From Glycera tridactyla (taxonomy: Eukaryota): a stretch of 64,000 nt of DNA. Below the pieces are notes generated by a model. The model saw only the letters and a list, made by a program, of their open reading frames with translations. It was not told the DNA's origin and made no database searches. Positions 51,560 to 53,515 of the stretch are shown piece by piece (the stretch's first letter is position 1; each line of letters begins with the position of its first letter). The DNA lies in NCBI GenBank assembly GCA_965644265.1, contig OZ286461.1:36270001-36334000 (forward strand), read 5' to 3'. Made by a program: the position numbers and the translations under genes.

Positions 51560-52432
51560 CTATTTTTCCAATTGACACACATCAAATGCTAAAAAGTAGT
51601 GTAGCTGTGACAACACATCGAATGTCCACAGCTCATTGTCTGCGGTGTATATCGTGATCAGCACATATTTGAGCACGTCCTGGTATCCAGTATGTGGCTG
51701 CTGCTGTCTCATGGCATTCAGAATCTTACGGAGGTGTGTTGGAGATGCAATTCCATCTATCATTGTGTGGAATTTCCCGGGCAGCTGGTAGTCGTGACCT
51801 TGAAAATAGGTCTCATCAAAGCTGTTCTTGTTGATGTACACTGTGCAGAAGTTGAAATATGTTGCCAGCTCCTCTGTGGTCGGATAACCTCTTATCCGAG
51901 CAGGTTCGACTATCTCGTGCAGCCTTTGTGCATACATCTGGTCGGTGTCTTCCCGCCTGAAAGATATAATCATTTCACGCACAGGTTCGACCACCTGGAC
52001 ACTGAACATCCAGTTCAGTATGAAATTTGTGAACGTATGGATGATGGGAATGTACGCCCTCGGAGAGACACCCATAAGCCTCTTGAAGATTATTATCATC
52101 AATAATATCTCCTTGGATGTGCAGCACCCCTGGTTGAATAGATCGAACAGCACTTCATGGAACATCTCCCTTCCCGAAATCTTGGAGCATACATGGTCCA
52201 TGAATGCATTCACTTTCAGAGTGTAGGGATGTCTCCAATCGAAATGCCAATAGCTCTCCTTCTCTTGCTTTGCAATGCGATGGAAATATGCCTGCACTTC
52301 TTGTGTGGACCACTCCTTCTCCGAATTTATATCCATATTAGGTGGTATTGCAGCTGTGAGGAAATCCTGGTGAAGTTCTATCTCCTCCAGCTGTTCAGTC
52401 ATCACATCGACAGATGTCTCTAGCGTTTCCAT
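51560..52432 (-). CDS. 290-aa helical protein, paralogue of 52727-53515; probably two degenerate Bcl-2-like domains
   Basis: Colinear with its neighbour (SPTHLRKILNAM/SPCHLRKILNVM, VLKYVLIT/VLKYILIT, AFDVC). TATATATA about 65 nt upstream of the ATG. Confidence 0.8.
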   Translation of the reverse strand: METLETSVDVMTEQLEEIELHQDFLTAAIPPNMDINSEKEWSTQEVQAYFHRIAKQEKESYWHFDWRHPYTLKVNAFMDHVCSKISGREMFHEVLFDLFNQGCCTSKEILLMIIIFKRLMGVSPRAYIPIIHTFTNFILNWMFSVQVVEPVREMIISFRREDTDQMYAQRLHEIVEPARIRGYPTTEELATYFNFCTVYINKNSFDETYFQGHDYQLPGKFHTMIDGIASPTHLRKILNAMRQQQPHTGYQDVLKYVLITIYTADNELWTFDVLSQLHYFLAFDVCQLEK

Positions 52433-52726
52433 GGTGGATATTAGGTGGAATGAAAATGAATGAAGTGGAATGGAATAAATACTCATAGAAGATGATATAT
52501 ATATGACTAAAGTCATGCTAAAGATCGAACTTGGCTAGTCTACAAAAGCGTTGATAATATACTCCACAGGGTGAAGTCCGCTCTATATCTCTGTAGCACA
52601 CAAGAGCTGATAAACAAGTGTCACCTTCCGCTAGAGCACTTTAGATGTTTGTTAGTTCAGCTACAGCACCCACCGAGTACACATAATAGGCTGTTCACTG
52701 GATCTACGCAGTGGATGGGATACATA

Positions 52727-53515
52727 TCACACCTCCATCCTACATACATCAAAGGCGATAGATAGATAGAAATGGAATAAATAATCGTAATAGAATGAGC
52801 TATTTTCGGCAGCCGTCAACGTGATTAATATGTATTTCAGCACTTCTTCATATCTTGTATGATATATCTCTCTGTGCATCACATTGAGGATTTTACGAAG
52901 ATGACAGGGGGATTTTACCTGTTCCACCATAATATGAAAAGCACTGTGGAGTTGGAAATCGTACCCCTGAAAGCAGTTTTCAACAAATGGTTCTTTGAGT
53001 ATGTACACACACATCGTATTGAAATAGATGGCCAGGTCCTCCGTTGTCATGTGCCCATTGAGATTGTATGGTCTCATGCATGCATGTATATCCTTGGCAT
53101 ACCTCTTGTCATTCAATTCACGATTGCAAATGATGGTCATGCAAGTCTCAGGATGTGTCGAGCAGTCATTAAGCAGCCATCCGGATATGGTTTGAGTGAA
53201 AGTGTTAATGATACGGATCTGTGCTCGAGGAAACAGTCCAACTAATCTGCTGAATATCAGGACCATCAATAGTACATCTATATGTATGCATTCACCATCT
53301 TTGATCAAGTCAATCATTATCTCAAACAACATATCGTTCCCTTTAATCTTGCCACATACATAGTCAAAATACGAGTTCACTGTATGTGGATCCAACTTAT
53401 TCCAAATATACTTCCGAAAAGTATCCTCATGTAGTGAAGATAACGCTTGGAAATAGGTATTTAGTTCTTCCAATTCCCATTCAGACTCTTCTCCTTCGGA
53501 AGAGACTGAATCCAT
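52727..53515 (-). CDS. 262-aa helical protein, paralogue of 51560-52432; probably two degenerate Bcl-2-like domains
   Basis: Same shared blocks as above; TATATATA at 53580-53573 and a TCA initiator near 53549. Confidence 0.8.
   Translation of the reverse strand: MDSVSSEGEESEWELEELNTYFQALSSLHEDTFRKYIWNKLDPHTVNSYFDYVCGKIKGNDMLFEIMIDLIKDGECIHIDVLLMVLIFSRLVGLFPRAQIRIINTFTQTISGWLLNDCSTHPETCMTIICNRELNDKRYAKDIHACMRPYNLNGHMTTEDLAIYFNTMCVYILKEPFVENCFQGYDFQLHSAFHIMVEQVKSPCHLRKILNVMHREIYHTRYEEVLKYILITLTAAENSSFYYDYLFHFYLSIAFDVCRMEV

Follow-up and report, generated by a model that had tools for sequence, protein, structure and literature searches.

The question raised by the locus examined here is what two adjacent genes at the right end of an endogenous virus-like element encode, and from which protein they descend. 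The window is a 64,000-nucleotide stretch of the Glycera tridactyla genome (assembly GCA_965644265.1, contig OZ286461.1, positions 36,270,001 to 36,334,000 of the forward strand; contig C7 in the present analysis, genome size 2.04 Gb), and the element, of Maverick/adintovirus type, occupies bases 31023-53687 of it. The two genes, A (51560..52432, minus strand, 290 amino acids) and B (52727..53515, minus strand, 262 amino acids), each encode a two-repeat helical protein, and B is the first gene inside the right terminal inverted repeat (TIR), with its ATG 172 nucleotides from the element end. They had been described in an initial annotation, made from the sequence alone, as paralogues containing tandem, degenerate Bcl-2 folds. 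The analysis shows that each protein consists of two copies of a helical unit of about 105 residues, for which Bcl-2 ancestry is probable.

A and B are paralogues, as had been proposed: both open reading frames (ORFs) exist, the peptides quoted for them are all present in the translations, and the two proteins align without gaps at 100 of 244 identical positions (41%, E 6e-69). Searching the genome gave 37 matches; among the 17 B-bearing loci examined, A was adjacent in 11, and both frames were full length and stop-free in 7. A sister element at two further loci has the same gene order with a single gene, which is 51% identical to A and 36% identical to B. In a 14-row tree, midpoint-rooted and carrying a long-branch warning, A and B are sisters (support 95/92) with the single gene outside, and the stem of B is longer than that of A (1.02 versus 0.26), showing that the A/B duplication followed the split from the single-gene sister element and that B evolved faster. 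Both genes are under purifying selection, with ratios of non-synonymous to synonymous substitution rates (dN/dS) between subfamilies of 0.11-0.18 for A and 0.12-0.24 for B; the higher values among near-identical copies (0.25-0.51 and 0.8-1.5, respectively, from few changes) are expected with decay after insertion. The genes were absent from 20 other Maverick stretches and so do not belong to the core set for the virion or for replication. A 318-residue version of A, starting from an in-frame ATG at 52516, was disfavoured; the divergent copies at L008 and L029 are 290-residue ORFs from the equivalent methionine.

More distant relatives were recovered by searching 1.84 billion representatives with a profile, which gave five unnamed proteins of 225-302 residues (E 2e-16 to 2e-9), and by further searches, which gave two more (total 7). 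Forming two clades, they share 15-22% identity with A, B and the single gene. The longest contig is 2647 for both P0001 and P0005 and 13299 for both P0002 and P0003, and each pair spans both clades; if the members of each pair do share a contig, a second independent duplication would have given rise to adjacent paralogues there.

The internal repeat was established with these relatives. The initial annotation held that the two halves of each protein echo each other, which on single sequences was not distinguishable from shuffles (p 0.19-0.91) and emerged once homologues were included: in an alignment built with 5-7 remote relatives, residues 38-150 matched residues 178-290 over 104 columns (hhalign probability 96.9, E 1.5e-10, score 60), against maximal scores of 17 in 100 column shuffles, 24 in 100 block shuffles and about 10.6 for reversed halves. 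The similar helices said to open each half (TQEVQAYF and TEELATYF) fall into the same register of this alignment, and the N- and C-terminal halves have the same helix pattern. The signal came from the seven remote rows (96.5 alone) and not from the eight own-genome rows (0.26 alone), so that A and B are assigned the repeat through their full-length homology to the remote relatives. In A, repeat 1 (residues 40-144, 52001..52315, minus strand) has five predicted helices; a linker (residues 145-182, 51887..52000, minus strand) contains one helix, into which the repeat does not extend, and a family-wide E161-x-x-D164-x-x-Y167 motif; and repeat 2 (residues 183-287, 51572..51886, minus strand) contains an invariant Y250 and an acidic residue at 252 in 14/14 rows. 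The corresponding units of B are at about residues 12-116 (53168..53482, minus strand; transferred ungapped from A) and about residues 155-259 (52739..53053, minus strand; from the A-B and half-versus-half alignments). As both halves are carried by all relatives, the internal duplication is older than the duplication of the whole gene, the order that had been suggested.

The proposed link to Bcl-2 was less direct. The ungapped 36-residue alignment on which it had been based was not above chance (A, score 7 with 4 identities; B, score -6 with 5 identities), and the best 36-residue window anywhere gave p values of 0.06 (A), 0.11 (B) and 0.12 (joint) against 1000 shuffles. The same register was nevertheless obtained when a joint profile of both halves was aligned with four host and four element Bcl-2s (hhalign 45.6%, E 2e-4, 67 columns); other runs gave 39.7%, and 46.8% after the decayed mini-genes described below were added, and 0/298 and 3/356 helix-preserving block shuffles reached the joint-profile scores. 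Halves from the remote relatives only, which the initial annotation had not seen, matched Bcl-2 at 23-36% in the same register (0/45 shuffles). Several results weigh against Bcl-2 ancestry: the host Bcl-2s alone matched the halves at <3%, the reversed host profile scored equally or higher, the decayed mini-genes alone gave <=3.9%, and no Bcl-2 chain was found with HMMER against the PDB. The repeats of TFIIB were at background against the repeat profile (probability <=0.5), a weak test on three partial host exons.

No match to Pfam Bcl-2 (PF00452) was obtained at E<=5 for 15 alignment rows or for P0001-P0006, and the loss of NWGR noted earlier was borne out, no NWGR-like string being present at the corresponding position of repeat 1 or repeat 2 in any of the 14 rows. 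In the register deduced for Bcl-2 homology region 1 (BH1), the arginine position is occupied by D or E in 14/14 rows of repeat 2 and 9/14 of repeat 1, and the invariant tyrosine of repeat 2 takes the W position of NWGR; for repeat 2 this register was carried over via the half-versus-half alignment and shifts by two when the decayed mini-genes are included. No BH2 (GGW) follows the alpha6-like helix, after which the repeat stops, and no C-terminal membrane tail was found (hydrophobicity of the last 30 residues <=1.24). Conserved polar residues are concentrated in the linker (E161, D164 and Y167) and in repeat 2 (S230, R235, Y250, K255 and T260). A and B thus lack the motifs of the Bcl-2 family and agree weakly with its fold, and are not filed as members.

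In the predicted model of A, the two repeats are packed into one body (predicted TM-score (pTM) 0.76). The last four helices of the repeat and the loop preceding them overlay Bcl-2 alpha2-alpha6/7 in the predicted structure; Bcl-xL, Mcl-1 and BAX matched best over alpha2-alpha7, at the top Foldseek ranks, with a root-mean-square deviation of 3.0-5.2 A and 6-15% identity. The sequence-profile and structure alignments to Bcl-2 are concordant in range and order, and the last four helices of A repeat 1 are likely to correspond to Bcl-2 alpha3-alpha6. Among the matches listed, the Bcl-2 overlays of repeat 1 begin at model residue 24 or beyond and at or after alpha2, leaving out helix 1, and NWGR, BH2, a match to BH4 and the membrane tail are absent from the A/B repeats when compared with Bcl-xL, Mcl-1 and BAX. 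Poxvirus Bcl-2-like proteins were not among the fold matches listed, BFVD having been queried with the whole model only.

The serious alternative, which we consider rather unlikely, is that the repeat folds as a short alpha-solenoid (CID/VHS/ENTH/HEAT-like) and not a Bcl-2 derivative, acting as a scaffold for transcription of the element together with its TBP- and PC4-like proteins. For repeat 1, the CID/VHS/ENTH and NELF-C/D solenoids reached Z scores equal to or higher than those of Bcl-2 with the first helix included; these solenoids have lower identity to repeat 1, and no profile support for them was seen. On the whole, the interpretation of the initial annotation is upheld in part.

A candidate for the ancestral form lies in the same element. 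A mini-Bcl-2 gene (49796..50104, minus strand, 102 amino acids) keeps NWGR and is without alpha1/BH4, BH2 and a membrane tail, the same parts that are missing from the A/B repeat; it matched the host Bcl-2s at 89.9% with hhalign, while its Pfam Bcl-2 match (E 3.5e-4) is below cut-off. It is retained in at least 10 full-length copies despite these missing parts. In six sister elements, a gene of about 95 codons at the same place, just before the ATPase gene, matches it at 64% (L063:6517-6804, L067:3250-3540, L068:3200-3490, L070:6459-6740, L072:3181-3555 and L073:3262-3552); NHGR is present in one and no motif in five, and none of the six loci gave a Pfam Bcl-2 match. The series from NWGR to NHGR or none indicates that motif decay of an alpha1-less Bcl-2 has taken place in this lineage, and the A/B repeat may derive from a viral Bcl-2 that, as in the mini-Bcl-2, was without alpha1; a single-unit intermediate between them was not found. 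Separately, L051 contains an uninterrupted 356-residue frame (754-1821) in which a Bcl-2 domain is joined to an N-terminal region that, judged by eye, may resemble a death-fold domain.

Given Bcl-2 ancestry, A and B would be soluble, compact two-unit accessory proteins of the element, the unit being a stripped-down Bcl-2 core. They would bind host proteins and not act as BH3 traps, BH3 partners being dealt with by the NWGR-bearing mini-Bcl-2; this combination of Bcl-2 ancestry and a non-BH3 host-binding role is given roughly an even chance. The conserved polar patch (E161, D164, Y167, R235, Y250, K255 and T260) may be the working surface, helix 5 of each repeat may occupy the vacant alpha1 site of its partner in the manner of a fused dimer, and the mostly acidic BH1 arginine position would disfavour BH3 binding. 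Helix 1 is a candidate plug of the BH3 groove, since the solenoid overlays set it beside alpha3-alpha5-like helices. The target most likely belongs to a pathway of host defence or cell survival; these results gave no pointer to NF-kB or TIR adaptors.

It is improbable that A and B, although derived from Bcl-2, are still anti-apoptotic in the way of M11L and F1L, with one or both repeats engaging BH3 helices of the host although no BH1 can be recognised. The groove-forming helices are the matched part of the repeat, the host has at least seven Bcl-2-family matches, and F1L and M11L are described, in the available parts of PMC7022251 and PMC3847314, as binding BH3 ligands without detectable sequence identity to Bcl-2, the binding of M11L surviving loss of the salt bridge (PMC3847314). 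Against this stand the lack of a membrane tail, the acidic residues at the presumed BH1 arginine position and the NWGR-bearing Bcl-2 already carried by the element. It is likewise doubtful that the repeat represents an independent helical bundle without traceable ancestor, with a perhaps structural or replicative role and with Bcl-2, TetR and solenoid matches reflecting common helix packing, as the profile and structure alignments to Bcl-2 agree and the genes are missing from 20 other Maverick stretches.

The preferred reading, a repurposed Bcl-2 core, has a close known parallel in the poxvirus proteins A46, A49, A52, B14, K7 and N1, which, in the sections consulted of PMC2494871, PMC4358236 and PMC7022251, share with A and B a small size, a helical make-up and the absence of BH motifs and of a membrane tail, and which multiplied by gene duplication. 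In the same sources, the overlay of A49 on M11 (3.2 A, 92 residues, 8% identity) is in a range similar to that of the A/B repeat against Bcl-2. The poxvirus proteins each comprise a single Bcl-2 domain, alpha1 included, and form dimers of separate chains, whereas A and B have two units per chain with alpha1 unmatched; A49, A52 and B14 bind host proteins (PMC4358236, PMC2494871), resembling the proposed action of A and B in kind. In the F1L and DPV022 dimers, as outlined in PMC3847314 and PMC7022251, the partner supplies alpha1 and BH3 ligands are bound, whereas in A and B the putative filler is helix 5 of the other repeat in the same chain. Homologues of Bcl2 and IAP have been reported in adintoviruses (Starrett et al. 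2021, PMC8502044); the portions of that paper at hand mention recognisable Bcl2 homologues and not the two-repeat, motif-less form, and its unnamed 'Adintoc' families, among them a map label 'Adintoc5:Bcl2', may be relevant to this point. No single-chain tandem Bcl-2 fold was found described in the literature searched, mostly outside subscription journals.

The assignment of the element rests on its genes and termini. Protein-primed PolB and an rve integrase with chromodomain, by which Mavericks/adintoviruses are defined (PMC11071296, in part), were both identified with Pfam. The left TIR (31023..31084, plus strand) starts with AGTAGT and is preceded by GTGTAT, and the right TIR (53626..53687, minus strand, 62 nucleotides, 96.8% identical to the left) is followed by GTGTAT, which fits the (AGT)2 termini and 6-bp target duplication outlined in PMC8097293. 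The PolB region (35123..39336, plus strand; DNA_pol_B_2, E 6e-49) is split into ORFs of 523 and 854 amino acids separated by 77 nucleotides, its N-terminal part differing in length among copies. On the minus strand are a likely major capsid protein (43812..45149; DJR-like_dom, E 0.12), the integrase with its C-terminal chromodomain (46060..47199; rve, E 2e-10; Chromo, E 1e-8), a TBP-like gene (47827..48240; TBP, E 7.5e-22), a packaging-type ATPase (49089..49799; Pox_A32, E 0.006) and, between A and the mini-Bcl-2, a PC4-like gene (50616..50942; PC4, E 5e-8). The ATPase and capsid matches are, like that of the mini-Bcl-2, below the Pfam cut-offs that PolB, the integrase with chromodomain, TBP and PC4 exceed, though the gene positions are conserved across elements. 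The gene order inward from the right end is B, A, PC4, mini-Bcl-2 and ATPase; PolB and the integrase with chromodomain are shared with adintoviruses and animal Mavericks, as are the putative ATPase and capsid-like genes, and no protease gene was identified in the window element.

PolB and the capsid gene are separated by a repeat-rich segment of about 4.4 kb (39395-43807) that looks like a later insertion, being absent from a close copy on contig C17, and a 32-nucleotide unit is repeated four times immediately outside the right TIR (53766-53925). Upstream of the PC4 ORF, 129 nucleotides (51063-51191) are skipped by a single contig of run X2 (depth 3), their CT..AC ends corresponding to a minus-strand GT-AG intron, which hints at transcription and splicing of the accessory block. 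Mavericks of several families with differing gene orders are abundant in the genome (516 ATPase candidates, 150/150 of those scored matching); at L093 an integrase/TM/penton-like block is present in about three tandem copies at 3.75-kb spacing. In a sister element at L071, a 228-residue ORF (2934-3620) occupies the A/B position, its His-Trp-Val motif, seen by eye, perhaps recalling cysteine proteases. At L032, a 240-residue ORF (4838-5560) located about 3.8 kb past the single gene of the sister element has a KN/TALE homeodomain (E 3e-9); this ORF had no counterpart in the window or in the other loci compared and is probably outside the element.

Motif-less, repurposed Bcl-2 folds are a textbook poxvirus invention. 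We tentatively propose, as a possibility well short of probable, that Mavericks evolved such a family of their own, independently of poxviruses: a fused, alpha1-less dimer with mutually completing repeats and helix 1 possibly plugging the groove, tandemly duplicated at least twice independently, as a toolkit against host defence proteins outside apoptosis. If true, this second origin, with its doubled single-chain unit, would mark such repurposing as a general route. Its apparent stages are present in one genome, from an alpha1-less Bcl-2 with NWGR through sister versions without it to one doubled gene and then two. Should the link to the Bcl-2 fold fail, the genes would still constitute a small family of orphan accessory genes in Mavericks. 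A and B are an unnamed family under purifying selection, and the proteins that they bind could lead to pathways of antiviral or anti-transposon defence in the animal host.
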